Shown: positions 1-25,541, numbered from the stretch's first letter. The stretch: DNA of 44,372 nucleotides from Oscillatoria princeps RMCB-10 (GCA_019359235.1 JAHHHT010000012.1:195648-240019), one strand, 5' to 3'. Made by a program: numbers and translations. Notes: generated from the letters alone by a model not told the origin.

Positions 1-1008
1 CGGACATTTTCAATGGAGGCGTCGATAAAGTCTTCTTGGCGGAAAGTCACTCGCACCTGAACATCTTTGGGCAAGCCGGCTCTCACTTCTTCCATTGCCG
101 CCTCAATGGCGCGAGTGACGGCGGGAGTGTCCGCTTGGGGCTGTTTGTTGACCATCACCACAACGGCTTTTTTGCCATTCAAGCTGCCGTCGCCGCGCTT
201 GAGGGCAGCCCCGATTTGCACTTCGGCAACATCTCCCAATCTGACGGGCGTGCCGGTGCGAGAGGTGATGGCAGATTGCTTCAAGTCGTCAATGGATTCA
301 ATCCGCCCGACTCCCCGGATTAGCAGTTCTTGGTCTGGGTTGATGAGGAATCCGCCAGGAGCGTTGACGTTAGCCGCAGCGGCTGCTTCTGTAACGTCTT
401 GCAAGGAGACATCAAAGGCTTTCAGCTTGGCTGGGTCAACTAATACTTGATACTGGCGGATGTCGCCGCCATACGCGATTACTTGGGAGACGCCGGGGAC
501 AGCCAGCAGCCGGTTTGTGACTTGCCAGTCAACAATTCGCCGCACTTCCATGAGGGAAGTGGTTTCGGAGGTGAGCGCATATTGCAATACCGTGCCGATG
601 GGGGAGCTGATGGGGGAAATTTGCGGGGAATCTGCGCCTTCTGGCAGTTTTTCTTGCGCTTGCTGCAATCGCTCGGTGACCAGTTGGCGAGCTTGGTAGA
701 TGTCGGTTTGCCAGTTGAAGATGACTCTCACAACAGAAAGACCGACGGCTGAGGCGGAGCGCACTGTTGTGACGCCGGGAGTGCCATTAATGGCGCTTTC
801 AATGGGTAAGGTGACGAGGGATTCGACTTCTTCTGGCGCTAAGCCGGCGGCTTCTGTTTGGATTTCCACTTGCGGTGGGGCAAAGCTGGGGAAGACATCC
901 ACCGGCATTTGCGAGGCGACGCGAAATATCCAAAGGGTGATCAGGATGCCGGCGAGGATAACTAGCCAGCGTTGCGCAATTGACCATTTGATGATAGCAC
1001 TGAGCATT
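1..1008 (-). CDS. Heavy-metal efflux RND transporter, CzcA/CusA/NrsA family. Only the N-terminal ~336 aa are present; the gene runs off the 5' edge of the window.
   Basis: Reverse-complement translation begins with ATG at 1008..1006 and reads MLSAIIKWSIAQRWLVILAGILITLWIFRVASQMPVDVFPSFAPPQVEIQTEAAGLAPEEVESLV..., the characteristic HME-RND N-terminus (TM1 followed by a large periplasmic loop). It is not in the ORF track because it has no stop codon inside the window. The plus-strand ORFs listed between 36 and 1074 are antisense artefacts of this gene. Confidence 0.75.
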
Positions 1009-1056
1009 GGGCCGGTGTCCAGTCGTGATAACTCCCTCGTCAATTGTTGGCAGGGG

Positions 1057-1077
1057 AAAATGAAATCAGGATGAAAT
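1057..1077. promoter_or_regulatory. Direct-repeat motif AAAATGAAATCAGGATGAAAT, containing two ATGAAAT units 11 bp apart, ~50-70 bp upstream of the czcA-like start.
   Basis: An identical 21-mer recurs at 4443..4463, at the same distance upstream of the czcB-like adaptor gene. Confidence 0.45.
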
Positions 1078-1261
1078 GCGCTCGACTTGTTCCGGAAGTT
1101 CCCTCAGACTGCTCTCCGTGGGTGGCCTGTGCCCCTACCATAAAAGGGGCGCTACCCTCTTCCCCCCACTTTGTAATGTCCGGCCCTGTCAAGCCGCGCC
1201 CCGCTCTCCCTGCTGTTCTTCAAGGCTCTCATCTGCCAGTCAATCACCAATCAACTTTGTT

Positions 1262-1741
1262 ATGACTCCAGATATCATCTCTGAAAATCACATCCAGACG
1301 TTAAACTTTATTATATCAACTCTCCACCGGCACAAGATTAAGTATCAAGTGACCGGCGGATTAGCCGGCAATCTCTACGGCTCGGCATGGCCCCTGCACG
1401 ATATCGACCTTGAGGTGGCCCAAAAAGACATGGAGCGAGTGGCGTCTCTGTTTAGAGACTGTACGATTCGCCCTCTGGCAAGGTTTGTCGATGAAGAGTT
1501 TGATTTGATGCTTTTGACCCTGCGCGTCGGTGAGGTTGAGGTTGACATCAATCAAGCTGAGGATGCCTTTGTCTTCACCAAAGAGGGGATCAGGATTCAA
1601 CTGGATACAGATTTATCTAGAGCTAAGGAAATCAGCTTCCTGGGATTAACTCTGTACGTTCAGCCGTTAGAGGAGCTGATTAAATATAAAGACTTGCTGG
1701 GCAGGAAGGAGGATGTCCTCGACCTGAGCCGGTTGAGATAA
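1262..1741 (+). CDS. Nucleotidyltransferase-fold protein of ~159 aa, Lnu/ANT(2'')-like.
   Basis: From ATG 1262 the product reads MTPDIISENHIQTLNFIISTLHRHKIKYQVTGGLAGNLYGSAWPLHDIDLEV... The GG...G...hDIDh motif and the length resemble lincosamide/aminoglycoside nucleotidyltransferases. The listed ORF 1076..1741 is probably an over-extension. Confidence 0.45.
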   Translation: MTPDIISENHIQTLNFIISTLHRHKIKYQVTGGLAGNLYGSAWPLHDIDLEVAQKDMERVASLFRDCTIRPLARFVDEEFDLMLLTLRVGEVEVDINQAEDAFVFTKEGIRIQLDTDLSRAKEISFLGLTLYVQPLEELIKYKDLLGRKEDVLDLSRLR

Positions 1742-1894
1742 AGGAAGCTCACCTAAACCTAACAGATGCCCTCTCTTTTAGAGGGCAGCCCTAAACTGTT
1801 AAACATAAATATCCCCTCACCACCTTTGTTTGACGAACAGCTATTCTTAGACTTGTAGGACTGCCCAATAGAGTGCAGCCATCAGAAGTGATTT

Positions 1895-2167
1895 TCACTC
1901 TATCACCCTGAGCGCTCCTTTGCGGAGATCTGCGTAAATTCGGTTAACCAACTTCTGTTCTTCTTCCCCGAGTGAACTGCTAGACAGCAGCGATATTATC
2001 AAGCGCTGATCTTTGGGGGTAATTCGGCGAGTGTCGAAAATTCGCTTAGCAACCTGAGCAATAGTCAGTTGGCAGAAAGGGGCTTGGCTATCCATATAAT
2101 TACGGAAGATATCAACGTATATACTAATTATAGTCCGTAATTTATCGGTTGACAGCAGTGATTTCAA
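1895..2167 (-). CDS. Hypothetical small protein (90 aa).
   Basis: The ORF is intact, with no recognisable domain. It lies between the czc-like genes. Confidence 0.25.
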   Translation of the reverse strand: MKSLLSTDKLRTIISIYVDIFRNYMDSQAPFCQLTIAQVAKRIFDTRRITPKDQRLIISLLSSSSLGEEEQKLVNRIYADLRKGALRVIE

Positions 2168-2237
2168 GCTTTACGGCGATGTGATAATTCCAGTCTGAGT
2201 CAGTGATGCAAGTCACGGGGATGGGACAGTATATCCG

Positions 2238-2260
2238 TAGGGCAGGCGTCTCGCCTGCCC
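2238..2260. repeat. Family-B hairpin (gtagggcaggcgtctcgcctgccc), followed by a second palindrome gtaggtgggtcgctctaggagcaacccaccctac up to about 2315.
   Basis: A perfect inverted repeat. Related copies are at 9717, 19428, 19467, 22998, 23106 and 25429. Confidence 0.6.
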
Positions 2261-2323
2261 TCAATGTCTAATGCTAGAGTAGGTGGGTCGCTCTAGGAGC
2301 AACCCACCCTACAAACTCAGCAG

Positions 2324-4393
2324 TTAGTCTTTACCGGCAACTGATGAGTGATGGTGATTTTTCTCAGCCAGCACCGGCAACTCACAAAACTCGCCAATGT
2401 AAGATGCCGGCAATTGACGCTTGCCATTGCCGGTTTCAGAAACTGAGTGCAGAGACGCCAGATGTACCGTCTCAACGGCTGCCGGCTTGCTGCGCCGGCC
2501 CGCCCAAAAAGCGCCGGCTGCGATCGCCCCCCCGGCAGGTATCGCCCACCACCAAGGCAAGGATGAAGGATTGAGGGTAAAAGCTGAAAAATTCTCCTTT
2601 GCTCCCTTGCTCGCCTGCTCCTTTGCTCCCTTGCTCGCCTGCTCCCCTGCTTTCTTGCTGCCACCGCGCAACGATTGCGCGTACAGCTGAATTGCGCCTT
2701 GGGTGACGATGCTATCTCCCTCAAATAAACCGTTTTTCACCTCAACTGTATCACCGGCAGTTTGACCTAAAGTGACTTCCACCGGCTCGAAATTCTGACC
2801 GTTTTGCGCGTAAACCAGCGCCTTGCCATTCGCCTCCACCACCGCAGCGGCGGGAATCGCCACAACAGCAGCCGGTGTTTTGTCGGTTATCACTTCCAAT
2901 TCCGCAAACATCCCCGGTTTTAACTGTCCGCTGGCATTCTCCAATTCCGCTCTCACCGGCACCACCCGCGTTTCCCCATCCACCACAGAACCAATCACCG
3001 CAATTCGTCCCGTGAAAGTGCGCTCCGGCAAACTCGCCACCCTCACGCGCACCTGCTGACCAATCTCTACCTTACTCAAGTCTTTTTCATATATATTTGC
3101 CGTCGCCCAAACGCGACTGTCATCCAAAATCGTCATCAAAGGTTTGCCGGCGGCATCAACCGATTCCCCGGGAGTAATATCTCTGTGCGCAACCCTGCCG
3201 GCAATCGGCGCTGTGACCGTAACAGTGCCATCCTCACTAGCCGCCGTTCCCAGCTGTTTCAGGCGAGTTCGGTAAGCCGTGTCGCTCAGCTGCAAGCGGG
3301 ATAAAGCCACCTCCACCGCAGCAGTCGCCCGTTTGACTTCTGCCTCAGCTTCCAGAACGTCCCGGCGCTGGTTTGCCTTAGTTAATTGCGCTTGCGCTTC
3401 AGCCAATTTTGCTTGCGATTCCCGCAACTCCCGCACCGGCAACTCCACCTCAGCCCGCTTGACTTCGGTTTCCGCTTGCAAAACATCCGGACGGCTTTTT
3501 GCCCTAGCCAGTTGGGCTTGACCTTCTGCCAAATGCGCTTGCGACTCCAGCATCTGCCGGCGCGGAATCGCTCCTGATTCCGCCAGTTCTTTATCCCGCT
3601 CGTACTGCTCCCGCGCCACTGCCAATTCAGTTTCGGCTCGCGCTATTTCCGCTTCGGCTATCTCAACATGACGCTGGTAGTTTTCTTTTGCCACCGCCAA
3701 AACTGCTCTCTCATCCACCAGAGCTTTATCTCTCTCGTACTGCGCCCGAAACGCAGCCAGTTGGGTTTGGGCTTGTTCTATCTCCGCAGAGGCTATTTTT
3801 CCCTGACGCTCCAAGTTTTCTTTAGCGAGTTTCAAGTTCGCCTCGGCTTCCTTCAGATCCGCCTCCGCCTCGGCGCGTTTCGCCAGAGATTCGACGCGCA
3901 AATTCACCAAATCAGAACTTGACAAAATTGCCACAGTCTGATTTTTTTTCACCGCATCACCCGGCTCTACCAGCAGCCGCACCAGCTTGCCGGCAACTGG
4001 CGCTGTCACCTCCACTTTTTGGCTGGGCAGAGTTTCAATCTCGCCGGTAGTTTTAATGCCAACATCCAGCTGCTGCTTGGTCACGGGTTTAACCTCAATC
4101 CCCATCCGTTTTGCGGTTTGGGCGTCCACCGCAATCCCTTCCGGGGTGGTGGCTTCCGAGCTGCTGTGGAACTCGTCCCCGTGACCGGCGTGGGCTTTCA
4201 CAGCTGCCGGTGCGACAGAAGTCAGAAGTAAAACGCTAAAAGTAAAAACAAAGACTTCTTTTATCTGGGCGCTGAGCCGGCTCTGCCTCCCAACTCTCGC
4301 TTTCGGGCGGTAGGGGCGAGCCTTGCGCCCGCCCGGAGCGGGGCTGACCATTTCTGTTTGTGCCTTGTTTTGGGAGAGAGTCTGCAACCGCAT
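2324..4393 (-). CDS. RND efflux periplasmic adaptor (HlyD/CzcB/CusB family) with a His-rich N-terminus and a long coiled coil.
   Basis: The protein is 689 aa. It has a TM segment VFVFTFSVLLLTSVAPAAV, then HAGHGDEFH, a lipoyl/beta-barrel segment, an extended coiled coil, and a C-terminal barrel ending in SKGAKEQASKGAKE repeats. Confidence 0.85.
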   Translation of the reverse strand: MRLQTLSQNKAQTEMVSPAPGGRKARPYRPKARVGRQSRLSAQIKEVFVFTFSVLLLTSVAPAAVKAHAGHGDEFHSSSEATTPEGIAVDAQTAKRMGIEVKPVTKQQLDVGIKTTGEIETLPSQKVEVTAPVAGKLVRLLVEPGDAVKKNQTVAILSSSDLVNLRVESLAKRAEAEADLKEAEANLKLAKENLERQGKIASAEIEQAQTQLAAFRAQYERDKALVDERAVLAVAKENYQRHVEIAEAEIARAETELAVAREQYERDKELAESGAIPRRQMLESQAHLAEGQAQLARAKSRPDVLQAETEVKRAEVELPVRELRESQAKLAEAQAQLTKANQRRDVLEAEAEVKRATAAVEVALSRLQLSDTAYRTRLKQLGTAASEDGTVTVTAPIAGRVAHRDITPGESVDAAGKPLMTILDDSRVWATANIYEKDLSKVEIGQQVRVRVASLPERTFTGRIAVIGSVVDGETRVVPVRAELENASGQLKPGMFAELEVITDKTPAAVVAIPAAAVVEANGKALVYAQNGQNFEPVEVTLGQTAGDTVEVKNGLFEGDSIVTQGAIQLYAQSLRGGSKKAGEQASKGAKEQASKGAKENFSAFTLNPSSLPWWWAIPAGGAIAAGAFWAGRRSKPAAVETVHLASLHSVSETGNGKRQLPASYIGEFCELPVLAEKNHHHSSVAGKD

Positions 4394-4442
4394 AACCAGA
4401 AGCCTCTTGTGGGAGATAGGACATACTGTAGAGTTACATAAG

Positions 4443-4463
4443 AAAATGAAATCAGGATGAAAT
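4443..4463. promoter_or_regulatory. Second copy of the AAAATGAAATCAGGATGAAAT direct-repeat motif, 50-70 bp upstream of the adaptor start at 4393.
   Basis: A 21/21 match to the copy at 1057..1077, at identical spacing to its start codon. Confidence 0.45.
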
Positions 4464-4528
4464 CCCTCAACTGTATTTCTGGGTATCCCAAATAGTATGA
4501 TGCTGAATAAAGAATCAGGAGGCGCAGA

Positions 4529-6046
4529 ATGTCAACAATGTCAGCGGAATCACAACCCCCTAAAGTAGTCGTCGTCGGTGCCGGTTGGGCCGGCTTGGGG
4601 GCGACCCATCACCTAGCCAAACAAGGCTACGACGTGACGCTGCTGGAAGCGGGTTCCTATCCGGGGGGCTTGGTTGCAGGCTGGAAAACTGCCGGCGGGC
4701 GTTCCGTAGAAGCAGGCATTCATGGCTTCTGGTATCCCTACCGGAATATCTTCTCGCTCGTGCGAGAATTGGGACTCAATCCTTTCACCCCTTGGACTCG
4801 TTCCGCGCAGTATTCACCGGCAGGGTTGGAAGTTGAATCGCCCATTTTCCAAGAAGAACCGCGACTCCCCACCCCGCTGGGGACTTTTCTCTACCCCCAA
4901 TTCAAGCGTTTGCCTTTGATTGACCGGCTTTCTGCTTTGCCCCTGCTTCACACACTCGCTGATTTTGACAATTCCGATGAAGCTTGGCGGCGGTACGACT
5001 CCGTTACCGCACGAGAACTTTTCAAACAGTTTGGCGTCTCGGCGCGACTGTACCGCGATTCCTTCGAGCCAATGCTGCTGGTGGGACTGTTTGCGCCGGG
5101 AGAGCAGTGTTCGGCAGCGGCAGCTTTGGGAATGCTTTACTATTTTATTTTAGCGCACCAGCCGGATTTTGATGTAGTTTGGTGCCGGGGAACGGTGGGA
5201 GAGAAGATATTTCGCCCGTGGTGTTCCGCTATCGAAAAAGCCGGTGGGCGCACGCTCACCCAGCGGCGAGTCAGCGATATCAGGACTGACAGTGCCGGTA
5301 AGGTGACAGGTGTTGTTTGCGGCGATGAAGTGTTTGAGGCGGATGCGGTTATCTTTGCAGTTGGGATAACCGGCATGAAAAAGATTGTCGCCAGTAGCCG
5401 CACTCTGCAAAGCCGCAAGGAATTCCAGAACATTATGAATCTGGGGGCGGTTGACGTGCTAGCAACTCGGCTGTGGTTTGACCGCAAAATTTCCATTCCC
5501 CGCGCTTCTAATGCTTGCTTCGGGTTCGACGCGACAACCGGCTGGACGTTTTTTGACCTCAACGCGCTGCACGACGAGTTCCGCGACGCACCGGGAACGG
5601 TTGTGGAAGCGGATTTTTACCACGCCAACCAGCTTATTCCATTGAGCGATGAGGAAATTGTCCGGAAAGTACAGGGGGATTTAGCGACCTGTGTGCCGGC
5701 TTTTGGGGGAGCGAAGGTTATCGACAGCAGTGCGATTCGTTTGCGGCAAGCTGTCACGCACTTTTTTCCGGGTAGCTACCAGTATATGCTGCCTGCTGTG
5801 ACAAGTTTTGAGAATGTGCTGGTGAGCGGGGATTGGATTGTCAGCCGGCACGGTTCGTGGTCGCAGGAAAAGGCGTATGTGACGGGTTTGGAGGCGGCGA
5901 ATTTGGTGGTTGAGCGTTTCGGGCGCGGGAGTAAGGCGGAGATTGTGCCGGTGGAGCCTGATGAGCCGCACATACAAGTTGCGCGGACTGTGAACAAGAC
6001 AGTGCGGGAATTGGGGAAAGCTTTCTTGCCGGATTTTTGGCTATAG
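4529..6046 (+). CDS. FAD-dependent oxidoreductase of the amine-oxidase / carotenoid-desaturase-like family.
   Basis: N-terminal Rossmann motif VVVVGAGWAGLGATHHLAKQGYDVTLLEA, then GIHGFWYPYRNIFSLVRELGL. At 505 aa its length is typical of the PDS/ZDS/HpnE-like family. Confidence 0.65.
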   Translation: MSTMSAESQPPKVVVVGAGWAGLGATHHLAKQGYDVTLLEAGSYPGGLVAGWKTAGGRSVEAGIHGFWYPYRNIFSLVRELGLNPFTPWTRSAQYSPAGLEVESPIFQEEPRLPTPLGTFLYPQFKRLPLIDRLSALPLLHTLADFDNSDEAWRRYDSVTARELFKQFGVSARLYRDSFEPMLLVGLFAPGEQCSAAAALGMLYYFILAHQPDFDVVWCRGTVGEKIFRPWCSAIEKAGGRTLTQRRVSDIRTDSAGKVTGVVCGDEVFEADAVIFAVGITGMKKIVASSRTLQSRKEFQNIMNLGAVDVLATRLWFDRKISIPRASNACFGFDATTGWTFFDLNALHDEFRDAPGTVVEADFYHANQLIPLSDEEIVRKVQGDLATCVPAFGGAKVIDSSAIRLRQAVTHFFPGSYQYMLPAVTSFENVLVSGDWIVSRHGSWSQEKAYVTGLEAANLVVERFGRGSKAEIVPVEPDEPHIQVARTVNKTVRELGKAFLPDFWL

Positions 6047-6501: not shown

Positions 6502-6518
6502 GCCAGCCGGTGAAATAA

Positions 6519-6606
6519 ACTACAAACTTTTGGGCTAAAGCCCAAATACAAACTTTTGGGCTAAAGCCCAAATACAAACTTTTGGGCTAAAGCCCAACTA
6601 CAAACG
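6519..6606. repeat. Family-G tandem repeat: three copies of a ~27-bp unit, tacaaacttttgggctaaagcccaaa.
   Basis: Tandem copies containing the near-palindrome ttgggctaaagcccaa. Reverse-complement copies are at 13036..13188 (x6) and 38113..38136 (x1). Confidence 0.8.
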
Positions 6607-6798: not shown

Positions 6799-6999
6799 AT
6801 GCGGCAAGTGCTTATCTATACTGATGAAGATGGCAACTGGGTGGCCGAATGTCCCAGCCTACCGGGTTGCGTCAGCCAAGGACAGACCAAAGAAGAAGCC
6901 ATTATTAATATCAAAGAGGCGATTAATTTATATATCTCCGCATTAGAAGAGGACGGTCTGCCCGTTCCCGAAGAACGTTTTGATGCCCTCTTGGTTTGA
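6799..6999 (+). CDS. hicB: HicB-like antitoxin (UPF0150 family).
   Basis: Reads MRQVLIYTDEDGNWVAECPSLPGCVSQGQTKEEAIINIKEAINLYISALEEDGLP. It overlaps the downstream HicA gene by 20 nt. Confidence 0.65.
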   Translation: MRQVLIYTDEDGNWVAECPSLPGCVSQGQTKEEAIINIKEAINLYISALEEDGLPVPEERFDALLV

Positions 7000-7219
7000 G
7001 AGCAAATTACCTAGAATTTCGGGCCGAGAGTGCGTCAAGGCTCTATCAAAGATTGGTTTCTATGTCAAGCGACAGGAAGCCAGCCATATTGTTTTGCGTC
7101 GGGATGAGCCATTTTCTCAGTTCGTCGTGCCCGACCATCAGGAACTTCACAAAGGCACACTCCGCGCTATCATTCGCGACGCTGACCTCAGTGTCGATGA
7201 GTTTATCCAGCTGCTGTGA
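6980..7219 (+). CDS. hicA: HicA-family toxin (YcfA-like mRNA interferase).
   Basis: Reads ...ECVKALSKIGFYVKRQEASHIVLRRDEP...VVPDHQELHKGTLRAIIRDADLSVDEF, carrying the conserved S-H-hydrophobic motif. Confidence 0.65.
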   Translation: MMPSWFESKLPRISGRECVKALSKIGFYVKRQEASHIVLRRDEPFSQFVVPDHQELHKGTLRAIIRDADLSVDEFIQLL

Positions 7220-7368
7220 GGGGGGATGGGTTGGCAATCTGAATGAAGGACGCTTAATCGAAACCCCAAGCTCTTAAGATGCGTTGGGCTGGGCCGAACG
7301 ACCCTATTTACTGCCGTGACACTTCAGAGCTATCCTGAAAAATGGGTTTCTCTAGATATTTCCCTGAA

Positions 7369-7710
7369 ATGGCAGTCTATCAAGTCCGGCTGGTGAATCC
7401 AGCGCTCAAACTCGACCGCACCATCGCAGTACCAGACGACCAGTACATCCTCGATATCGCTGAAGACGCCGGCATCCGATTGCCGGCTGGCTGCAAACAA
7501 GGCGACTGCTCCGCCTGTGTCGCCAAACTGGTAAGCGGTGAGGTCGATCAGAGCGAGCAAAAATTTCTCCGCCCCTCAGAAATAGCCGCTGGGTACATCG
7601 TGACCTGTGTGACTTATCCCCTCTCTGATTGCACACTGGAAACCCACCAAGAACAAGTCCTCTATCAATCCTCTCTTTACTTTAAGCCTGAAGCCGCCCC
7701 ATCTGAGTGA
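7369..7710 (+). CDS. Plant-type [2Fe-2S] ferredoxin.
   Basis: Reads MAVYQVRLVNP...IRLPAGCKQGDCSACVAKLVSGEVDQSEQ...YIVTCVTYP. The C-x4-C-x2-C ... C spacing is the plant-type ferredoxin signature. The listed ORF start at 7342 is probably too far upstream. Confidence 0.8.
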   Translation: MAVYQVRLVNPALKLDRTIAVPDDQYILDIAEDAGIRLPAGCKQGDCSACVAKLVSGEVDQSEQKFLRPSEIAAGYIVTCVTYPLSDCTLETHQEQVLYQSSLYFKPEAAPSE

Positions 7711-7780: not shown

Positions 7781-7813
7781 AGAAACCAGATTTCTTTAAG
7801 AAACCTGGTTTCT
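7781..7813. repeat. Family-D palindrome (agaaaccagatttctttaagaaacctggtttct), with degenerate half-sites (tttcttgac) continuing to ~7865.
   Basis: Inverted repeat. Near-identical copies are at 9744, 17211, 30622, 30670 and 33061. Confidence 0.6.
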
Positions 7814-7960
7814 TGACTTACCCGCCTAGGGACTCCCCCGTTTCTTGACTTCCCTATTTCTTGAGTCCCTACTGCAAACTGCCTCACAGCAGGCGACTTC
7901 CGGCAAATGCACGCTATACTCTTCCATTAAATTAAATCCCCCAGCACGGTCGAGATAGAT

Positions 7961-8773: not shown

Positions 8774-8808
8774 GTAGGGTGCGTTCCCTAAGAGGGAACG
8801 CACCCTAC
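8774..8808. repeat. Family-A hairpin (gtagggtgcgttccctaagagggaacgcaccctac).
   Basis: A perfect 15-bp stem. Copies are at 9309..9343 and 25466..25500. Confidence 0.7.
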
Positions 8809-8853
8809 CCCCTGAAAAACCACCCCCACAAACCCCCCACACTCTCCCAGAAA

Positions 8854-9308: not shown

Positions 9309-9343
9309 GTAGGGTGCGTTCCCCCCAGGGGAACGCACCCTAC
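9309..9343. repeat. Family-A hairpin (gtagggtgcgttccccccaggggaacgcaccctac).
   Basis: Inverted repeat with the same arms as the copies at 8774 and 25466. Confidence 0.7.
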
Positions 9344-9360
9344 TAACTCGCACGCTAAAC

Positions 9361-9716: not shown

Positions 9717-9777
9717 GTAGGACAGGCGTCTCGCCTGTCCATTAAGAAACCCGGTTTCTTTAAGAAACCGGGTTTCT
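9717..9777. repeat. Family-B hairpin (gtaggacaggcgtctcgcctgtcc) immediately followed by a family-D palindrome (aagaaacccggtttctttaagaaaccgggtttct).
   Basis: Two inverted repeats lying just 3' of the AcrB-type pump gene. They may act as a terminator. Confidence 0.6.
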
Positions 9778-9824
9778 GGGGCGTACTTCATCCAAGTGCA
9801 AACCGCTATATACCGGCCTGCTTA

Positions 9825-12800
9825 TCAAACGAGCTCAGAAGCTCCCTCAGACTCCCCCTCCCCTGCCTTCGCGGAAGCCGATTTCCCCATCAGCCGCATT
9901 TGAGCCGTCGTGGCGATCGTGTAAAACACCGGCACCACATACAAACTCAAAAACGTCGAGACAAACATCCCCCCAACAACCGACATCCCGATAGACACCC
10001 TCGCCGCCGCACCGGCACCCGTCGCTAGCGCCAGAGGAATCAACCCAAAAATCGTCGAAAAAGCCGTCATCAAAATCGGGCGAAACCGGATTTTCCCCGC
10101 CTCAATCGCCGCCTTGGCAACCGGCATCCCCTTCTCCCGCAGCTGATTTGCAAACTCCACAATCAAAATCGAGTTTTTCGTCGCCAGCCCAATCAGCATA
10201 ATCAGCCCAATCTGGCTGTAGACATTCAAATCCAAACCCGCCAGCAACAGCGCCGCAAACGCGCCCAGCAGCGACAGGGGCACCGCCAGCAAAATAATGA
10301 TCGGGTCGAGATAGCTCTCAAACTGAGCCGCCAAAACCAAGAAAATAAACGCCAGCGCCAGCAGAAAAATAGCGCCCGTCGCTTGTCCCGCCTCTTTAAA
10401 CTCCAGAGACTGCCCCGCATACGATACCCGAATCTCTGCCGGCAGCACCTCCTTCGCTAACCCCTCCAAAGCATCCAGCGCTTGCCCCAACGTATATCCC
10501 GGTGCGGGGCTGCCTTCAATGGCAGCCGCCCGGAAGCGGTTAAAGTGATTGATTTGCGGCGGCGTCGTCGCAGAACTCACCGACACCACATTGCTCAAAG
10601 GAACCACTTGCCCCTGGCTCGTGCGGATATACAGCTGGCGAATATCCTCCGGACTCGCCCGAAATTCTTTTTCAGCTTGAACAACCACCATCAAGCGCCG
10701 GTTGCCCCGGTTGAAACTCGTAATTTTCTGACTTCCCAAAAGGATTTGCAGCGTCCGAGAAATCTCCTGCACCGAAATCCCCAAATTCGCCGCTTGCGCC
10801 CGGTCTACGCTGACAGTCAGCTCCGGTTTATTCAGCTTTAAATTCGTGTCGATATTCACCAACTGCGGCAGCTGCCGCGCCCGACCGGCAAACTCAGCAG
10901 AAACTTGAGCCAGCGTTTCTAAATCGCTGCCTTGCAGCACAAACTGAACCGGCTGCCCGAAACCGCCCCCCGGCAAAGCAGGCGGATTGATTGGCAGCAC
11001 AAAAGCGTCCGTAATTGCGGCAAACCGGCCAAAAAGCTGGCCAATAACCGCTTTTTGCGACTGCTGCGGCTCCTTGCGCTCCTCCCAAGGCTTCAGCCGG
11101 ACAAACGCAAATCCCTGATTCACCTGACCGGGCGCACCCCCACCAAACGCACCAATGGTAAAATAAGTATTAACGTCCTTCACCTGGCTGAGCGTCTGTT
11201 CAATTTCCCCCATCACCTTGTCGGTGTAGTTGATAGTCACCCCTTCCGGTGCCCGCACAATCGTAAAAACAGCCCCCCGATCCTCCGCAGGCAAAAATTC
11301 CAGCGGCAGCTGTTTGAACAGCTGAAACGTCAGCCCCAGCGACACAAAAAACCCCAGAATAACGACCGCCTTTAAAGGCATCAAAATCCGGATAGAGCGG
11401 TCGTAAATCGCCTGCATCACCTTGACGATCCCCTCAAACAATGCCAGAGGCGCACTGAAAAGAGCCGCCAGAGGATTTTTTCTTTCTTCTTTCGCCCACT
11501 CCGGTTTAGCCGGCTTGAGAATGCGGGCGCACATTGCAGGTGCCAGCGTCAGGGCGACAAAGGCAGAGATCAGCACAGAACCGGCAATCGTGATCGCAAA
11601 TTCTGTAAACAGCCGCCCCGTCGTGCCGGCGGAAAACCCCACCGGCACAAACACCGCAATCAGCACCACCGTGGTAGCAATCACCGCAAACACCACCTCA
11701 CCCGTTGCGGCAAAGGTCGCTTGCCTGGGTTTCATGCCCTTTTCTTCGATGTAGCGGATAATATTTTCCAGCACCACGATCGTGTCGTCCACCACCAGCC
11801 CCGTACACAGCGTCAGGGCAAACAGGGTGAGGGTATTAATAGAATACCCCAAAAAGAACATGATGCCAAAGGCACCGATGAGCGAAACGGGAATCGTCAC
11901 GGCTGGAATCAGAGTTGCCCGCCAGTCTCGCACGAAAAAGAAGATAATCAGAATCACCAGAAAAATCGAGAGGTAGAGCGACCCCCAAACCTCCTCAATG
12001 GCCAGCCGGATAAACTCCGAATTGTCCACCGCCAGCTGGTAGCTCATCCCCTCTGGGAACGACTTCGCGAGTTCCGCCATTTTTTCTTTGGCTTGTTTGG
12101 CTACGTCCAGGGTATTGGCATTGGATAGTTTAACCACCCCTAAACCCACTGCCGGTTTGCTATTAAACCGCACGAAAGAGCGCTCGTCTTCCGCGCCAAT
12201 TTCCGCCCGACCGACATCTTTTAACCTCACTTGCGAGCCGTCTGAATTGCGCTTAATCACCAGAGCTTCATATTCCTCCGGATTCTGGAGCCTTCCGAGG
12301 GTTCGCACGGAATATTCCGAGGTTTGCCCTTCAATGATGCCGCTGGGAATCTCGACATTTTCCCGCCGCAGCGCCTGCTCTACATCCAAAACAGTCAGGT
12401 TGCGGGCGGCGAGTTTCACCGGATCGACCCACAGGCGCATGGCATATTTGCGCTCGCCGCCAATAATAACGGTGCTGACGCCCGGAACAGTTTCCAGCGC
12501 GTCTACGATCGACCGGTCCGCGTAGTCGCTCAACTCCAGCGTGGAGAATTTGCTCTCCGGGCTGTAGAGAGCAAACCACACAATCGGAGAGGCGTCGCTC
12601 GATTGCTTGTTGACAATTGGCGCTTCGATCTCGTCGGGAAGTTTGCCCCGCACTCGGTCCACGCGAGAGCGCACGTCTTGCGCCGCTTCCTCAATGGGCC
12701 GGCTCAGTTCAAACTGGACGGTAATCGCACTCACTGACTCCCGACTTTGTGAGGTGAGGGTTTTAATCCCCTCAACCCCATTAATTTCAGCTTCTAATAT

Positions 12801-12992
12801 TTCAGTGACTTCCGTCTCTACAACTTGGGGGTTGGCACCCGGATAAACCGTAGTTACGCTCACCACCGGCGGGTCAATTGTGGGGTATTCCTGCACCGGC
12901 AGCCGGGTGTAACCCACCAGCCCCACCAAGATAATCAGCAGGGAACACACTGATGAGAAGACCGCTCGCTTGATGAAAAAATTGGTGAACAT
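9825..12992 (-). CDS. Multidrug efflux RND transporter permease (HAE1/AcrB family).
   Basis: The protein is 1055 aa with 12 TM segments and two large periplasmic loops. Diagnostic motifs are ...VVLENIIRYIEEKGMKPRQA... and AAARVSIGMSVVGGMF. Confidence 0.9.
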   Translation of the reverse strand: MFTNFFIKRAVFSSVCSLLIILVGLVGYTRLPVQEYPTIDPPVVSVTTVYPGANPQVVETEVTEILEAEINGVEGIKTLTSQSRESVSAITVQFELSRPIEEAAQDVRSRVDRVRGKLPDEIEAPIVNKQSSDASPIVWFALYSPESKFSTLELSDYADRSIVDALETVPGVSTVIIGGERKYAMRLWVDPVKLAARNLTVLDVEQALRRENVEIPSGIIEGQTSEYSVRTLGRLQNPEEYEALVIKRNSDGSQVRLKDVGRAEIGAEDERSFVRFNSKPAVGLGVVKLSNANTLDVAKQAKEKMAELAKSFPEGMSYQLAVDNSEFIRLAIEEVWGSLYLSIFLVILIIFFFVRDWRATLIPAVTIPVSLIGAFGIMFFLGYSINTLTLFALTLCTGLVVDDTIVVLENIIRYIEEKGMKPRQATFAATGEVVFAVIATTVVLIAVFVPVGFSAGTTGRLFTEFAITIAGSVLISAFVALTLAPAMCARILKPAKPEWAKEERKNPLAALFSAPLALFEGIVKVMQAIYDRSIRILMPLKAVVILGFFVSLGLTFQLFKQLPLEFLPAEDRGAVFTIVRAPEGVTINYTDKVMGEIEQTLSQVKDVNTYFTIGAFGGGAPGQVNQGFAFVRLKPWEERKEPQQSQKAVIGQLFGRFAAITDAFVLPINPPALPGGGFGQPVQFVLQGSDLETLAQVSAEFAGRARQLPQLVNIDTNLKLNKPELTVSVDRAQAANLGISVQEISRTLQILLGSQKITSFNRGNRRLMVVVQAEKEFRASPEDIRQLYIRTSQGQVVPLSNVVSVSSATTPPQINHFNRFRAAAIEGSPAPGYTLGQALDALEGLAKEVLPAEIRVSYAGQSLEFKEAGQATGAIFLLALAFIFLVLAAQFESYLDPIIILLAVPLSLLGAFAALLLAGLDLNVYSQIGLIMLIGLATKNSILIVEFANQLREKGMPVAKAAIEAGKIRFRPILMTAFSTIFGLIPLALATGAGAAARVSIGMSVVGGMFVSTFLSLYVVPVFYTIATTAQMRLMGKSASAKAGEGESEGASELV

Positions 12993-13035
12993 GAGTCGCT
13001 CATTTACACTCTATAATTGCTACCTTTTATCGTTC

Positions 13036-13188
13036 AAGTTTGTAGTAGGGCTTTAGCCCAAAGGTTCGTAGTAGGGCTTTAGCCCAAAGTTTGTAGTAGG
13101 GCTTTAGCCCAAAGTTTGTAGTAGGGCTTTAGCCCAAAGTTTGTAGTAGGGCTTTAGCCCAAAGTTTGTAGTAGGGCTTTAGCCCAAA
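13036..13188. repeat. Family-G tandem repeat: ~6 copies of a ~25-27-bp unit (gtttgtagtagggctttagcccaaa).
   Basis: A perfect tandem array inside the 300-bp adaptor-pump intergenic spacer. It is the reverse complement of the 6519 array. Confidence 0.85.
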
Positions 13189-13200
13189 ACGCATAAGGAG

Positions 13201-13246
13201 GAGGCAGAGCCTCCTGGAAAGGGTTCCCAGGCGGAGCCTGGGAACC
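13201..13246. repeat. Family-C element (gaggcagagcctcc ... gttcccaggcggagcctgggaac).
   Basis: Other copies at 23033..23079, 24908..24952 and 26930..26975 carry the same two modules in the opposite order. Confidence 0.6.
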
Positions 13247-13294
13247 AGATTAAAAAAGAAAAGGGCGTTTTTCTCCCTTTTCCCTTCTCCCCTC

Positions 13295-14932
13295 TCACTT
13301 CTCCCGTGCTCCCTTGCTCCCTTTCCCCTCACCGCTGGGGAGGGGCATAATAGGCGCACCGTCAGCCAGCTTTTGGATGCCGGAAACAATAATAGTGTCA
13401 CCGGGCACAAGTCCTTCGATGACTTCCGCACGATCCCCATTAACCAAGCCCAGTTTCACCGGCTGCCGTTTCGCCACCGCCGGCTCGTCGGGTCCTGGAG
13501 CCACAAACACAAATCGCTCCTGACCTTGGAAAACCACAGCCGTTGCCGGCACCACAGCACTAGAGCGCCGGTTCCAAATCACCTTGGCCCGCACGAACTC
13601 GCCATTCAGCAGCTGCCCTTGGGGATTGTCAAACGCCGCTTTTGCCAGAACCGTTTGCGAGTCAGTCACCGTTGGGGAAATAAAGCTAACCCGACCTGTC
13701 CCCAAGGATTTCCCTTGCGAGTCGCTCAGCTCCACCGGCAGCCCCTCACGCAAATCCGACGCCCGCTCCAAAGGAACCGGCATGCGCAGTTCCAGAAATT
13801 CGTTCTGCGTCACCGTGGTGATCTCGTCCCCTTTTTTGACATAATCTCCCAATTTCACGGGAATATCGCCGATTTTCCCGGCAAAAGGGGCCACTACCGC
13901 CGCCCTTTCCAGCTGGGATTCCGCGTTCCGCACTTGGGCTGCCGCTTGGGCCACTTGCGCTTCCGCTTGCGCGATCTCCTCTGGGCGGGAGCCATTCTGC
14001 AGTTGCAGCAGGGCTTGCCGCTGCTGTTCCACTTCCGCTTTCAGCCGCTCAATGTCGGAAGTCCTGCCCTTTCGCACTTGAGCCAAGCGCCTTTCGGCTT
14101 CTTGCAACTGGGCGGCGGCGCTGCGGTCTTCTTTTATATATTGATCCAGCGTGTCCTGAGCAATCGCCCCCTGCTGCGCCAATTCCCCATACCGGCTCAC
14201 CCGCTGCTTGGTGAGTTCTGCAGCGGCTTTTGCCGACTCCAATCGCGCTTCAGCTTGAGCGATCTCTTCCGGTGCCGCCCCAGCTTGCGCATCGGCGAGG
14301 CGGGTTTCCGCTGCGGCTAAACTGGCTTTGGCTCTGGCAATTTCCTCCGGGCGGCTGCCGGCTTGCAGCTCTTTGAGCCTAGCTTCGGCACCGAGCTGGT
14401 TCGCCTTGGCTTGGCGGAGCTCGGCTTGCAGGGAGTCGCTCTCTATGCGAGCCACCGAGGTCCCTTTTGCCACCTGCGAGCCGGATTTGACATAGATTTC
14501 CCTGACTAAACCGTCGATTTCTGCCTTCAGCCCCACTGACTTCTGGGCCTCTAGGGTGCCGACAAACTCCGAGGACTCTTCCACAGGGGCGAGCGCCACT
14601 CGCGCTAGCTTCACCGGCACTCCGCGAGGTTTGCTCAGGGCTGCCGGTGGGCCGCCCGCCGCCCCCTGGCTGCGCGACTGCCACCACTGCCAGCCGAAAA
14701 CCCCACCTCCTGCCAGCAGCAGCAGCCCCACCGCCATCAGCGCAGGCAGCAGCAGCGATCCGGATTTTGGTGGCGGCTGTTCTGCCGGCGGCTCATCTGG
14801 CTCGTATTCCCCCGCATCCTCTGGAGAGAGGACGTAGCCGGTCTTTACATCATCCTGAATGCGAGCCGGTTTCTCCTCGGCTTCAGCTAACCCCTCAGGG
14901 TTCTTAACATGATTGGTTTTCGTCATCAGCAA
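13295..14932 (-). CDS. RND efflux periplasmic adaptor subunit (HlyD family).
   Basis: The protein is 545 aa, with a TM anchor LLLPALMAVGLLLLAGGGVFGW, a coiled-coil hairpin and a beta-barrel. It lies upstream of the pump on the same strand. Confidence 0.85.
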   Translation of the reverse strand: MLMTKTNHVKNPEGLAEAEEKPARIQDDVKTGYVLSPEDAGEYEPDEPPAEQPPPKSGSLLLPALMAVGLLLLAGGGVFGWQWWQSRSQGAAGGPPAALSKPRGVPVKLARVALAPVEESSEFVGTLEAQKSVGLKAEIDGLVREIYVKSGSQVAKGTSVARIESDSLQAELRQAKANQLGAEARLKELQAGSRPEEIARAKASLAAAETRLADAQAGAAPEEIAQAEARLESAKAAAELTKQRVSRYGELAQQGAIAQDTLDQYIKEDRSAAAQLQEAERRLAQVRKGRTSDIERLKAEVEQQRQALLQLQNGSRPEEIAQAEAQVAQAAAQVRNAESQLERAAVVAPFAGKIGDIPVKLGDYVKKGDEITTVTQNEFLELRMPVPLERASDLREGLPVELSDSQGKSLGTGRVSFISPTVTDSQTVLAKAAFDNPQGQLLNGEFVRAKVIWNRRSSAVVPATAVVFQGQERFVFVAPGPDEPAVAKRQPVKLGLVNGDRAEVIEGLVPGDTIIVSGIQKLADGAPIMPLPSGEGKGSKGAREK

Positions 14933-14959
14933 GGACTCCTGACCTTTGGCCTACTGTGA

Positions 14960-14977
14960 GCAGCAAAGCTTTGCTGC
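14960..14977. promoter_or_regulatory. Perfect 18-bp palindrome GCAGCAAAGCTTTGCTGC, ~30 bp upstream of the adaptor start.
   Basis: Self-complementary sequence lying between the PadR remnant and the adaptor gene. It could be an operator or an attenuator. Confidence 0.4.
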
Positions 14978-15130
14978 GACAGCGTGCGGTGCGGGCGGCA
15001 AGCTTGTTCAGTCCCTCTCTGTGCTGGCGTCCGCTCGACAGCCTGTCTGTCCACTCCCCAGCGCTCGCGCCCTGGTAAATTGTGCGGGAGCATCCCGCTG
15101 CAGCTCTGCCAAATCAATGCGATAATGATT

Positions 15131-15470
15131 TCAGCCTGCGGCAGGAGAGAATATTTTTTGCCAGCTGAATCCCGGCAACGGGATTGAAATGACCCAGCTC
15201 TCTCGCGGATGCTCCAGCATTTTTTGCCGCCAGCGGGCCCGTCCTTTGGCCATGATGCTGTAGATTTTGCGGCAGGGGCCGCTTTCTGACTCCTCCTCCC
15301 CAATGGCGACAATCTCGCCCCGCTCTTGCAAGCCCTTCAGAGCGCGGATAAATCGCTCCGTAGCTGACACTGATGCAGCCGCTCATCAACAGCTCCAGCT
15401 GCTGCTTCAGCCGGTAGCCGTGCGTGGGTTCGCGCTACAATTGGCCCTGTGCGGATAGCTCTAGCTTTTA
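15131..15470 (-). pseudogene. Decayed PadR-family transcriptional regulator.
   Basis: Frame B reads KLELSAQGQL*REPTHGYRLKQQLELLMSGCISVSYGAIYP, with an in-frame TAG where the conserved AEGPMHGY helix is expected. A 1-nt frame change then leads into frame A, which reads ALKGLQERGEIVAIGEEESESGPCRKIYSITAKGR, the PadR wing and helix alpha-4. No ATG starts the reading frame. Confidence 0.55.
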
Positions 15471-15474
15471 TATC

Positions 15475-15497
15475 ATACTGATATACCATATTAGTAT
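15475..15497. promoter_or_regulatory. AT-rich inverted repeat ATACTGATAT-acc-ATATTAGTAT in the divergent promoter region.
   Basis: A 10-bp inverted repeat with one mismatch, directly upstream of the PadR remnant. The surrounding region 15440..15560 is strongly AT-rich. Confidence 0.4.
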
Positions 15498-15769
15498 TAT
15501 AGGCCCAATTTGAAACCACTTAAAAAATTTTTATTAAACTTAATAAAGCGTCATAAAATTTAAACATAAAGGGCCAAGCGGGACAGGCCATGTCAGCTCA
15601 CAGAAGCCGCTCCGCCAGCGTCCTGACCTGCGACCGGTGGCCAACACATCCCGGCGGGGGAGGCAGACGCGCATATAATCTGCTGTTTGATCAAGTTGGG
15701 GGCAAACGTCAATCGCTATACCCATATACGCATAGCCCTCTCTACCCCTCGTTAGTCAATGTAAATTAA

Positions 15770-17137
15770 ATGCTTAAGAGTTTAGATGCCCCCCCTCCAG
15801 TCATGACTCTAAGGATTTGCCGCCTAGTAGCGTTCGCCGGCTTGCTGGCAGCAGCCTCTGGTTGCGGCTGGCTGCCCAAGGAAGCCGCTGACGCCCAAAC
15901 CCGCGCCCCCAGGGCGGAAAGGCCCGCCGCTGCAACGCCGGTCGATGTTGCCATCGCCCGCACCGGCTCGGTGAGCGAGCCGCTGGAGTCCACCGGCACC
16001 ACCCTCCCCGTGCGGGAAGTCTCCCTGCGCCCCCAAGTCGAGGGCAAGCTGCTGGAACTCAACGCCGATGTGGGGGACACCGTACAGAAAGGCCAAGTCC
16101 TCGCCCGACTGGACGACGCCTTGCAGATGAGTGCCGTCGTCGGGGCGGAAGCCGAACTCGCCGCCCGCAAGTCCGAGGTGGCGCGTGCTGAGGCCGAAGT
16201 GAGCAACGCTCGCACCAAAGTCGAAGAGGCGAGACTGCAACTGCAGCAAGCGCAAGCAGACGCCAACCGGCTCGAACAGCTGTTCAAAGAAGGAGCGATT
16301 TCAGCCCAAGCAGCAGAACAGGAGCGGACAGCGGCGCGAACAGCCGAGCAGGCTCTGCGCTCCGCCCAAACGCAAGTTGCCACACAGCAGCAAGCCGTCG
16401 CAGCGGCGCAGGGGCGCGTCGTCGCCCAGCAAGCCATCCTCGCCCAAGTGCGAGAGCGACTCTCCTACTCCGTCTTAACCTCCCCGATCGCCGGCACCGT
16501 GCTCCAGCGCGTCACCGAACCGGGCAATCTCGTGCAGCCCGGGAGCGAACTCCTTAAACTAGGCGACTTCAGCGAGGTGAAAGTCGCCGCCGATATCTCG
16601 GAACTGGAACTGAGCAACATCCGGGTGGGGCAAAGGGTGGGAGTCAAGCTAGACGCCTATCCGCAAGAAAGCTTCACCGGCGAGGTGACGCGCATTTCCC
16701 CCGCCGCCGATCCGCAAGCTCGCCTCGTGCCGGTGGAAGTCACCATTTCCAACAGCAGCGGCAAAATTGGCAGCGGCTTGCTGGCGCGAGTCAGCTTTTC
16801 CTCACGCCAAGCTCAGCGCGTGCTCGTGCCGGTGGCGGCGCTGGAAGCCGGTGGAAGAGGCAGAGGCGGCGCTGGGGGACAGGGCAGCAAAGGCGCAGGG
16901 GAGCCGAAAGGCAGGGGTGCGGGGGAGCAAAGGAGCAGTGAGGGGGTTGTGTTTGTGGTGAGTGGCGAGGGGAAGGAGGTCAAGGTTTCCGCTCGCAGCG
17001 TTCAGCTTGGCGAACGCGCCAACGGGCAGGTCGAAATCCTGTCGGGATTGAATGCGGGAGAGCGATTCGTCGCCCGCGCCGGCAAACCCCTGAAAGACGG
17101 CGACGCCGTTAGCTTAAGTATTCTGTCGGAAAAGTAG
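15770..17137 (+). CDS. RND efflux periplasmic adaptor subunit, a lipoprotein of the HlyD family.
   Basis: Signal peptide with a lipobox (LLAAASGC), a coiled coil and a beta-barrel. A Gly/Lys-rich insert (GGRGRGGAGGQGSKGAGEPKGRGAGEQ) lies near the C-terminus. Confidence 0.85.
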   Translation: MLKSLDAPPPVMTLRICRLVAFAGLLAAASGCGWLPKEAADAQTRAPRAERPAAATPVDVAIARTGSVSEPLESTGTTLPVREVSLRPQVEGKLLELNADVGDTVQKGQVLARLDDALQMSAVVGAEAELAARKSEVARAEAEVSNARTKVEEARLQLQQAQADANRLEQLFKEGAISAQAAEQERTAARTAEQALRSAQTQVATQQQAVAAAQGRVVAQQAILAQVRERLSYSVLTSPIAGTVLQRVTEPGNLVQPGSELLKLGDFSEVKVAADISELELSNIRVGQRVGVKLDAYPQESFTGEVTRISPAADPQARLVPVEVTISNSSGKIGSGLLARVSFSSRQAQRVLVPVAALEAGGRGRGGAGGQGSKGAGEPKGRGAGEQRSSEGVVFVVSGEGKEVKVSARSVQLGERANGQVEILSGLNAGERFVARAGKPLKDGDAVSLSILSEK

Positions 17138-17210: not shown

Positions 17211-17245
17211 GAGAAACCCGGTTTCTTTAAGAAACCGGGTTTCTC
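17211..17245. repeat. Family-D palindrome (gagaaacccggtttctttaagaaaccgggtttctc).
   Basis: Inverted repeat between the convergent adaptor and kinase genes. It may act as a bidirectional terminator. Confidence 0.6.
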
Positions 17246-17402
17246 ATGCGTACTGAGATACGAGTTTCTCGCCGCGAGTCTTCTGCCGTAAAACTTGTTG
17301 CGCTGCGGCGCACCCTGTTAACATTTTGCCGATTTTTGTAAAAATATTTCTGCTTAATTAGTGGTGTAACATTTAGCCAGCGGCAAGACGCGATTCGGCG
17401 CT

Positions 17403-22700: not shown

Positions 22701-22945
22701 TGGCGCTGGGAATTGGGGAAGGTGCAGAATTTATGCAGCCCTTGGGGGTGGTGGTGTTTTCGGGGATGTCTGTATCGACGCTCCTGACGCTGTTTATTAT
22801 TCCCTGTCTGTACACTTTGCTGCACGACTTTCCCGCGCTATTTCGCGTGAGGAAGTTGAAGAAGTTGAAGGTGCCGGTGGCTGTTTCTGATGAGATTCCT
22901 GAGATTTCTCCTGAGATTCCTGAGATTCCTGTCGGGAAGAAATAG
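19706..22945 (+). CDS. Efflux RND transporter permease (AcrB/HAE family).
   Basis: The protein is 1079 aa with 12 TM segments and two large periplasmic loops. The C-terminal tail carries KLKKLK and EIPEISPEIPEIP repeats. Confidence 0.9.
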   Translation: MSGFSVSATAIRQHIGTLMLTLTVVVVGVFFLSQLQVDLLPSITYPRIGVRLSAPGVSPEVGVEEITKPLEEAFSATEGVVQIFSQTREGQISLDLFFQPGGDIEQALNDATASFNRARGRLPDTIEQPRLFKFDPSQQPVYEFALTSPGLRDVDLRVFADQQLSRELGVVPGVAGVDVAGGVREEVRVLLDLDRQQALGVGLRDVLDTLRTRNQDISGGRILGENSEPLTRTVGRFKNAGEINTLSFDAGSSTSSRRVYLRDFAEVIDGTEDQRVFVSLNGEPAVKVSIQKQPDANTITVVDGVKKRLEELRESGLIPEEMILIPTLDESRFIRNSLSDVINSGISGALLAAVAVLFFLGSLRQTFIISLTIPLCTLAALILMKLLGLSLNLFSLAGLALGIGQAIDTSVVILENIAVGVSTNPAITRRRKKNARQIIEEAISRGKEVESSMIASTGANLISVLPFLLVGGFFSLLFSELILTICFAVAASLLVALTVTPVLMSRLLGISWSSRISEFWLLKQFNARFEDAKRAYAGALSWALRYRLLVIALAFLVLGGGSLQLAGQIPQEILPRINTGQANLVAQFPPGTPLETNRKVMGIVDEILRNQPETDYVFTTAGGFLFGSNTTSNALRASSTITLKPGTDVQDFVQRASAEFDKLNLAGIRLRLNPGQLRGIILTNSPVRGADVDIILQGDDEQKLRQAGRQILAALDEGVTQARFRPDADDRQPEVQIHPEWERLAAFGLTAQDIGDTIQTAIQGSVPTQLQRGERLVDVRVQLAQESVRRPSQLAQIPLFVNGNRQIRLSDVAEIKEGQAPGEIQRINQRNSVLIAGSLNKGATLSDALAQVNKVLAGVELPEGVTVLPSSAGQTNQELQNSLKTLGGLSAFLVFVVMAVQYNSLLDPLAIMFTVPLALAGGILGLYVTQTAIGATVLVGAVLLVGIVVNIGIIMVEQANQIREEEGVSRQAAILKAAPQRLRPIMMTTITTVLGLFPLALGIGEGAEFMQPLGVVVFSGMSVSTLLTLFIIPCLYTLLHDFPALFRVRKLKKLKVPVAVSDEIPEISPEIPEIPVGKK

Positions 22946-25465: not shown

Positions 25466-25541
25466 GTAGGGTGCGTTCCCTCTTCGGGAACGCACCCTAC
25501 CCCTACGAAGCATTACTCCCCTCCCCGCCGGCGGGGAGGGG
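25466..25541. repeat. Family-A hairpin (25466..25500) followed by a family-F hairpin (cccctccccgccggcggggagggg, 25518..25541).
   Basis: Inverted repeats. A family-F copy is present in reverse orientation at 38061..38085. Confidence 0.65.

Follow-up and report, generated by a model that had tools for sequence, protein, structure and literature searches.

Two identical direct-repeat boxes matching the Synechocystis copM promoter precede separated copB- and copA-like genes in Oscillatoria princeps RMCB-10

Regulators of the OmpR/PhoB family recognize DNA sites of differing architecture. The pho box of Escherichia coli PhoB is formed by two 7-bp direct repeats, CTGTCAT, with an 11-bp period, and it stands 10 bp before the -10 element, where it replaces the -35. 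The copper boxes of the proteobacterial regulators CusR, CopR and PcoR are usually inverted-repeat-like, of the AAAATGACAA-N2-TTGTCATTTT type, and the HLR1 element of RpaB, found at high-light genes of cyanobacteria, consists of (G/T)TTACA(T/A)(T/A) direct repeats with a 10-bp period. Here we describe a 21-bp element carrying a direct repeat that occurs twice in a stretch of 44,372 nucleotides from the cyanobacterium Oscillatoria princeps RMCB-10 (GCA_019359235.1, JAHHHT010000012.1:195648-240019; this whole stretch is referred to below as the window, with positions counted from its first letter). One copy lies upstream of a gene for a periplasmic adaptor and the other upstream of a gene for a pump, both of the resistance-nodulation-division (RND) type. 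Judged by comparison with the copper-responsive promoters of Synechocystis, the two copies are very probably CopR boxes within activator-dependent promoters, separately switching on copB and copA of a copper efflux system.

The closest described system is that of Synechocystis PCC 6803, in which the genes are arranged on pSYSX in the order copM-copR-copS-copB-copA-copC. Phosphorylated CopR binds upstream of both copMRS and copBAC and activates the two operons (PMC13421787, a 2026 review). Giner-Lamia 2012, cited in PMC4890671, had drawn attention to two direct repeats in the copM promoter (PcopM), and the transcription start site (TSS) of copM has been mapped 26 nt before its start codon (PMC4890671), which corresponds to position 43 of the motif described below. 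The sequence ATTTCATCCTGATTTCATTTT stands in the copM promoter at 4717-4737 of the Synechocystis locus (L119), 47 nt before the copM start codon, and the 72-nt fragment in published work begins 4 nt 5' of it. It is identical to the element of the window in 21 of 21 positions. The corresponding sequence in the Synechocystis copB promoter (PcopB), ATTTCATCTTGGTTTCATATT, matches the window box in 17 of 21 bases.

On the plus strand of the window the element reads AAAATGAAATCAGGATGAAAT, with exact matches at 1057-1077 and 4443-4463 and at these two places only; no other copy was found in the 44 kb when up to three mismatches were allowed, and matches were likewise missing from all 100 dinucleotide-preserving shuffles (chance expectation 0). 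The pattern ATGAAAT-N4-ATGAAAT, in which the half-site starts are 11 bp apart, is confined to the same two positions. The functional strand of both copies is the minus strand. Candidate CopR box 1 (ATTTCAT-CCTG-ATTTCAT-TTT; 4443..4463, minus), which precedes the copB-like adaptor gene, coincides with the PcopM box and with the consensus of 79 cyanobacterial sites, and candidate box 2 (1057..1077, minus), which precedes the copA-like pump gene, is the same 21-mer. With the adaptor ATG at 4393 and the pump ATG at 1007, both on the minus strand, each box occupies -70 to -50 relative to its start codon; the two promoters thus share the form ATTTCATCCTGATTTCATTTT-N49-ATG, the spacing of exactly 49 nt being identical at both genes. 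The original prediction, made from the window alone, had described this arrangement of an identical 21-mer, with two ATGAAAT half-sites 11 bp apart, situated 50-70 bp before the minus-strand start codons of two heavy-metal RND components, and all of it is borne out. Its further proposal of an OmpR/PhoB-type site agrees with the identity to the direct-repeat box of PcopM and with the position of the element 10 bp before an extended -10 that has no -35.

The two downstream genes are, judged by sequence, orthologues of copB and copA of a CopBAC-type heavy-metal-efflux RND (HME-RND) copper efflux system. The adaptor (689 aa; 2324..4393, minus) belongs to the HlyD_D23, RND_mfp and CzcB families and is 44% identical to Synechocystis CopB over 524 aa. 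The pump gene leaves the window, which holds its 5' part (335 codons; 1..1007, minus), and the family scores refer to this truncated fragment alone: it matches ACR_tran, with CusA/CzcA (TIGR00914) as the best NCBIfam family. The full gene, encoding 1029 aa, lies at 13387-16476 of the source contig (L120), and the pump is 65% identical to Synechocystis CopA. This JGI contig contains the window with 100% identity, and the genes past the window's left end were read in it. Beyond the pump gene there follow in order a CopC homologue (54% identical to copC), a copper P1B-ATPase (TIGR01511, 652 bits, with an HMA domain), a cupredoxin, a CopM-family protein (127 bits), a 124-aa open reading frame (ORF) and a third exact copy of the 21-mer (21545-21565 of the contig). 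This third box lies 8.2 kb past the left end of the window and about 110 nt before a gene for a His-rich lipoprotein (MNRFVSAF...), so that three exact boxes are found within 22 kb. Over about 950 bp the contig shares 92% identity with Oscillatoria sp. PCC 10802 (L108), where the lipoprotein is followed by a small membrane protein and a TolC-like outer-membrane factor. The CopR-type metal efflux site of the original prediction can be kept and refined to copper and a CopBAC-type system, as opposed to a generic czc or nickel, cobalt and zinc system. The adaptor is also distinguished by an unusual repetitive extension of about 110 aa at its C-terminus (2324-2724, minus), in which GEQASKGAKE is repeated in tandem (DNA repeat 2592-2662), a segment, LPWWWAIPAGGAIAAGAFWAG, is predicted to be hydrophobic, and HHH stands close to the end.

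The box is widely distributed in the phylum. When its 19-bp core was scanned in one genome per prokaryotic species, it was present at at least 118 loci, from which all counts given here derive, as compared with about four expected by chance under our own uniform-composition estimate. Cyanobacteria account for 107 of the at least 118 loci and most of their orders are represented, including Nostocales, Oscillatoriales, Coleofasciculaceae, Chroococcales and Pleurocapsales, Pseudanabaena, the Leptolyngbya and Nodosilinea groups and Thermosynechococcaceae; several of the sites are on plasmids. Among the matches listed, to which the proportions in this and the following paragraphs also refer, the 11 non-cyanobacterial loci are chance-like and lie inside reading frames where context was read. 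With sites oriented as ATTTCAT... and the first downstream ORF taken, 84 of 114 cyanobacterial occurrences precede a gene of one of eight copper-homeostasis classes, namely RND adaptors (24), DUF305/CopM proteins (20), HME-RND pumps (14), His-rich YtkA-like lipoproteins (7), multicopper oxidases (6), OmpR-type response regulators (6), DUF326 Cys-rich proteins (4) and CopC-like proteins (3). The original prediction had proposed searching the whole genome to see whether hits cluster upstream of metal-homeostasis genes, and in these other genomes they do. A literature search, exact strings included, returned no paper on the phylum-wide conservation of the box or with the motif in print, the primary paper being outside its reach.

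Several occurrences involve genes of other kinds. In Microcoleus and a related metagenome-assembled genome, an exact box precedes an ORF of 600-706 aa (L002 572-2686, L099 3273-5390 and L005 560-2368) with the architecture REC - winged helix (Trans_reg_C) - REC - REC - GGDEF, the first 225 aa of which are 37-38% identical to CopR; a CopR-box-controlled link from copper to c-di-GMP through this protein is possible. A gene for an FtsH-type AAA protease is found downstream of an exact box in L072 (3457-4872) and L102 (2093-3085), and one for a 2OG-Fe(II) oxygenase, adjoining copRS, in L059 and L060. Both may also belong to the copper regulon.

The architecture of the promoter was read from the 79 cyanobacterial sites, which had been de-duplicated by flank (<60% identity to one another). 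Downstream of the repeats, T is found at motif positions 20-22 in 67, 56 and 47 of the 79 sites, T at position 26 in 69, G at position 27 in 67, A at position 30 in 76 and T at position 34 in 68, and purines are enriched at positions 41-44. These bases describe an extended -10, TG-N2-A-N3-T, that begins 10 bp past the second repeat. No -35-like hexamer stands 17 bp upstream of it, and a sigma-70 consensus scan found a canonical promoter at neither box of the window, as expected of activator-dependent promoters. The copB promoter carries the extended -10 TG-T-AACTCT (4430..4438, minus), in which all four conserved downstream bases are present (TG at 26-27, A at 30, T at 34); that of copA, TG-C-CAACAA (1044..1052, minus), retains the TG and the A. 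Because the copM TSS of Synechocystis falls at motif position 43, transcription is predicted to start at about 4421-4423 for copB and about 1035-1037 for copA, each with a 5' untranslated region (UTR) of about 28 nt, and the boxes would then span about -42 to -22 from the TSS. Another 116 near-consensus boxes in the same loci have nearly invariant half-sites and the spacer consensus CYTR, the commonest spacers being CCTA, CCTG and CTTG. The distance from box to start codon varies from 29 to 261 nt across loci and that from box to -10 is fixed. The consensus for the cyanobacterial CopR box and its -10 can be written as ATTTCAT-CYTR-ATTTCAT-TTT-N3-TG-N2-A-N3-T, and its geometry indicates a probable head-to-tail dimer of a winged-helix regulator in place of -35 recognition.

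The question of which regulator occupies the box bears on the sole rival explanation that carries some weight. Orthologues of CopR (57-87% identity) are encoded together with CopS in the same 8-kb block as the box at about 20 loci. They fall under the NCBIfam RppA equivalog with 384-420 bits, and CopR matches TIGR01387 (cztR_silR_copR) as its third-best family, at 177 bits against a cut-off of 279. That CopR itself is assigned to RppA leaves room for a paralogous regulator of this subfamily, such as NrsR, or for another metal sensor, which would bind the box in response to nickel, cobalt, zinc or redox signals; the pump, moreover, is a generic CusA/CzcA member by profile, and PcopM also responds, if more weakly, to Zn, Cd and Ni, as PcopB does moderately to Zn (PMC4890671). 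We nevertheless regard this as improbable, as the copM promoter, whose box has the same 21 bases, is induced by copper, the regulon is copper-specific (multicopper oxidase, CopM, cupredoxin, copper P1B-ATPase and DUF326), and the closeness of the pump to CopA is accompanied by the presence of copC and copM orthologues.

A second alternative, that the box controls the plus-strand genes on its other side, instead of or in addition to copB and copA, follows from the location of both copies in divergent intergenic regions. The genes concerned begin at 1262 (nucleotidyltransferase) and 4529 (FAD amine-oxidase-like), and the copy at 4443-4463 is only 66 nt from the plus-strand ATG at 4529. The conserved -10, however, is present on the minus-strand side alone, there is no conservation 5' of the box in the 79 sites, and the two plus-strand neighbors are unrelated to one another and have no homologue at the other copper loci compared. 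Control of these genes is therefore very unlikely.

The chance is slighter still that the copies belong to a genome-specific dispersed repeat or miniature inverted-repeat transposable element (MITE) with no regulatory role, although palindromic repeats of several short, dispersed families abound in the window. Only two copies are present in the 44 kb, their sequence is not palindromic, and sequence identity between them is confined to the 21 bp, their flanks being 24-36% identical, which is the random level; the same range of similarity outside the box holds across all three promoter regions, the two in the window and the third beyond it. The occurrence of the same 19-mer throughout the phylum, almost always at promoter distance before copper genes, refutes the alternative of a repeat scattered over unrelated loci. 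An equally slim prospect is that the direct repeats are a relic of duplication or recombination, such as attachment sites or a target-site duplication, around a mobile segment of 3.4 kb containing copB and the nucleotidyltransferase gene. Perfect direct repeats do bracket a segment with apparently foreign cargo, but a third identical copy is found 8.2 kb further on, and each window copy keeps its 49 nt to the start codon and its own -10. As the flanks share only random similarity, the identity of the copies speaks for selection for a consensus site rather than duplication, and since that identity is to a phylum-wide consensus, selection suffices to explain it. A role of the motif in RNA, as a 5'-UTR element, riboswitch or small-RNA target, is scarcely credible, although both window copies stand equally far from their start codons, given that the Synechocystis TSS lies downstream of the box, that across loci the distance to the -10 is fixed and that to the start codon is not, and that Rfam, searched with 900-4700 at a permissive threshold, yielded no match at the box and one irrelevant sub-threshold match, at the hairpins described below.

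Several points weigh against the assignment of the boxes to CopR. The secondary sources, in the text available from them, describe the repeats as 'likely involved' and CopR as one that 'binds upstream', with no footprint on these exact bases. NCBIfam RppA lumps CopR with the nickel regulator NrsR, and sequence does not separate the specificities of these paralogues. No copRS pair was found near the island, whether in the window, about 10 kb upstream or 7.5 kb downstream (the 92%-identical Oscillatoria sp. PCC 10802), and its presence elsewhere in this genome is assumed. At position 34 the copA promoter departs from the conserved T, with A in its place and T as the next base. The sample of exact 19-mers is blind to variation inside the box, for which the 116 variants provide a partial correction, and the ORF calls behind the downstream classes were automatic. 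Within the window, no OmpR-type regulator or CopS-like kinase is encoded, just as the original prediction had stated. A dCache histidine kinase gene at 17403-19283 was considered as a candidate for copS, but its product is unrelated to CopS.

The adaptor and pump genes are not adjacent, as had been noted in the original prediction, and the material between them is cargo inserted between copB and copA. It consists of a nucleotidyltransferase-like gene (159 aa; 1262..1741, plus), a borderline match to PF10706 (21.5 bits against a cut-off of 21, E = 2.8e-4) with no homologue at the other copper loci compared, and a small entry in the ORF list (90 aa from TTG; 1895..2167, minus) with no family match in profile searches and no counterpart at those loci. 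The small ORF has its own near-consensus sigma-70-like promoter, CTGTCA-17-TATAAT at 2155-2127, and because this lies inside the annotated 5' end, a product of 66 aa from the ATG at 2094 seems more likely than the 90-aa TTG form. Immediately after the copB stop codon stand two GC-rich hairpins with stems of 13 and 10 bp (2230..2320, minus), a region with a predicted RNA fold of -62.3 kcal/mol (z = -4.7 against shuffles) and no U-tract after the hairpins. These are probably 3'-end or terminator structures that would separate the copB and copA units.

The arrangement of copB and copA was compared in 30 loci that have both genes. In 20 loci the genes are on the same strand with a gap of less than 400 nt, and 19 of these have no box in the gap; where the gap is 400 nt or more (9 loci), a box is present in 8. 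The genes are divergent in the one remaining locus, to which the comparison does not apply. In six of these eight the box lies 67-87 nt ahead of the ATG of the pump, which is also the arrangement here. Together with the box and -10 at each gene and the hairpins after copB, the pattern in split pairs supports the view, already advanced in the original prediction, that copB and copA are separately initiated but co-regulated transcription units.

The cargo in the gap varies by genome (L047, L020, L044, L117 and L043) and is mutually unrelated, comprising a GUN4-like protein with a Uma2 endonuclease, a DUF4351 protein, a PMT_2 glycosyltransferase with an acyltransferase, a PAP2 protein and a Fic/DOC protein. 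This variety suggests that the gap is a recurrent insertion site wherever the pump has its own box. Two evolutionary readings can be offered tentatively, as somewhat less likely than not. A second box before copA, gained in a lineage of filamentous cyanobacteria, may have made the copB/copA junction tolerant of insertions, so that it was repeatedly colonized by unrelated and often selfish cargo. The near-invariance of the 19-21-bp box, spacer included, in most cyanobacterial orders may be owed to copper islands having spread horizontally as a whole, together with their regulator and often on plasmids, and not to vertical conservation alone.

In the mechanism that we favor, excess copper would be sensed by the kinase CopS, and the resulting phosphorylated CopR, a member of the OmpR/PhoB family, would bind as a dimer head to tail to the two ATTTCAT half-sites with their 11-bp period. 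The box would replace the missing -35, so that bound CopR would be needed for the recruitment of RNA polymerase, as in a class-II activator promoter of the pho-box-like kind. Two transcripts would in this way be switched on in parallel, the first carrying copB for the adaptor and the second running from copA, probably through copC and the genes for the copper P-type ATPase, cupredoxin and copM outside the window; the third identical box would drive a unit for the lipoprotein and the outer-membrane factor. The pump would need a box of its own because unrelated cargo and strong hairpins separate copA from copB. CopRS would be encoded elsewhere in the 8.6-Mb chromosome, with the regulator acting in trans. 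For this organism we infer both CopR binding and copper induction.

Set against the known systems, the locus most resembles the Synechocystis promoters PcopM and PcopB, with which it shares the repeat period, a TG-extended -10 ten bp downstream, a short 5' UTR and orthologous downstream genes. Synechocystis, however, has copBAC as one operon with one box and copRS adjacent, whereas here copB and copA are boxed separately with cargo between them, copRS is not nearby and a third box would drive the unit for the lipoprotein and outer-membrane factor. With the pho box of PhoB the element has in common the 7-bp repeats, the 4-bp spacer, the 10-bp gap to the -10, the missing -35, the TCAT within the half-site and the OmpR/PhoB winged-helix family of the regulator; it differs in the half-site, ATTTCAT, in the signal, which would be copper and not phosphate, in the phylum, and in a spacer that is C-Y-T-R rather than A/T-rich. 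CusR, CopR and PcoR of the proteobacteria are likewise OmpR-family two-component activators of copper efflux and oxidase genes, but their boxes are unlike the tandem ATTTCAT repeat, and cyanobacterial CopR scores below the TIGR01387 cut-off. HLR1 offers a parallel as a phylum-wide direct-repeat site of an OmpR-type regulator, and differs in half-site, period, regulator and regulon.

The remainder of the window contains features of other kinds. Two more RND systems of adaptor and pump, assigned by NCBIfam to the multidrug type, are located at 9825-14932 (minus) and at 15770-17137 and 19706-22945 (plus), with the orphan dCache histidine kinase gene (minus) between them, and a CopR box is found at none of these. 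A HicA/HicB toxin-antitoxin pair and a DUF4926 gene at 6799-7219 (plus; 7175-7595 on the minus strand of L120) are flanked by the FAD amine-oxidase-like gene and a 2Fe-2S ferredoxin gene. The intergenic regions harbor short dispersed or tandem palindromic repeat families that are unrelated to the CopR box and typical of cyanobacterial MITE-like or terminator-like elements, among them 25-26-nt tandem units with GGGCTTTAGCCC, pairs of AGAAACCCGGTTTCT, and GTAGGGTGCGTTCCC...GGGAACGCACCCTAC; they are found at 6518-6605, 13007-13213, 7781-7825, 9745-9789, 17212-17256, 30623-30714, 33062-33106, 8774-8811, 9309-9346 and 25466-25503.

The locus is a new example of a known element, which a specialist would expect, and it raises no new biological question. 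What the analysis offers is a putative regulator, signal and promoter architecture for two genes, both of which would belong to a copper-resistance island with three promoters. It also extends the predicted copper regulon of cyanobacteria beyond the two operons of Synechocystis to multicopper oxidases, DUF326 proteins and His-rich lipoproteins and, in some genomes, to FtsH and a GGDEF-fused regulator. The consensus could serve annotation and help in designing promoters inducible by copper for filamentous strains.

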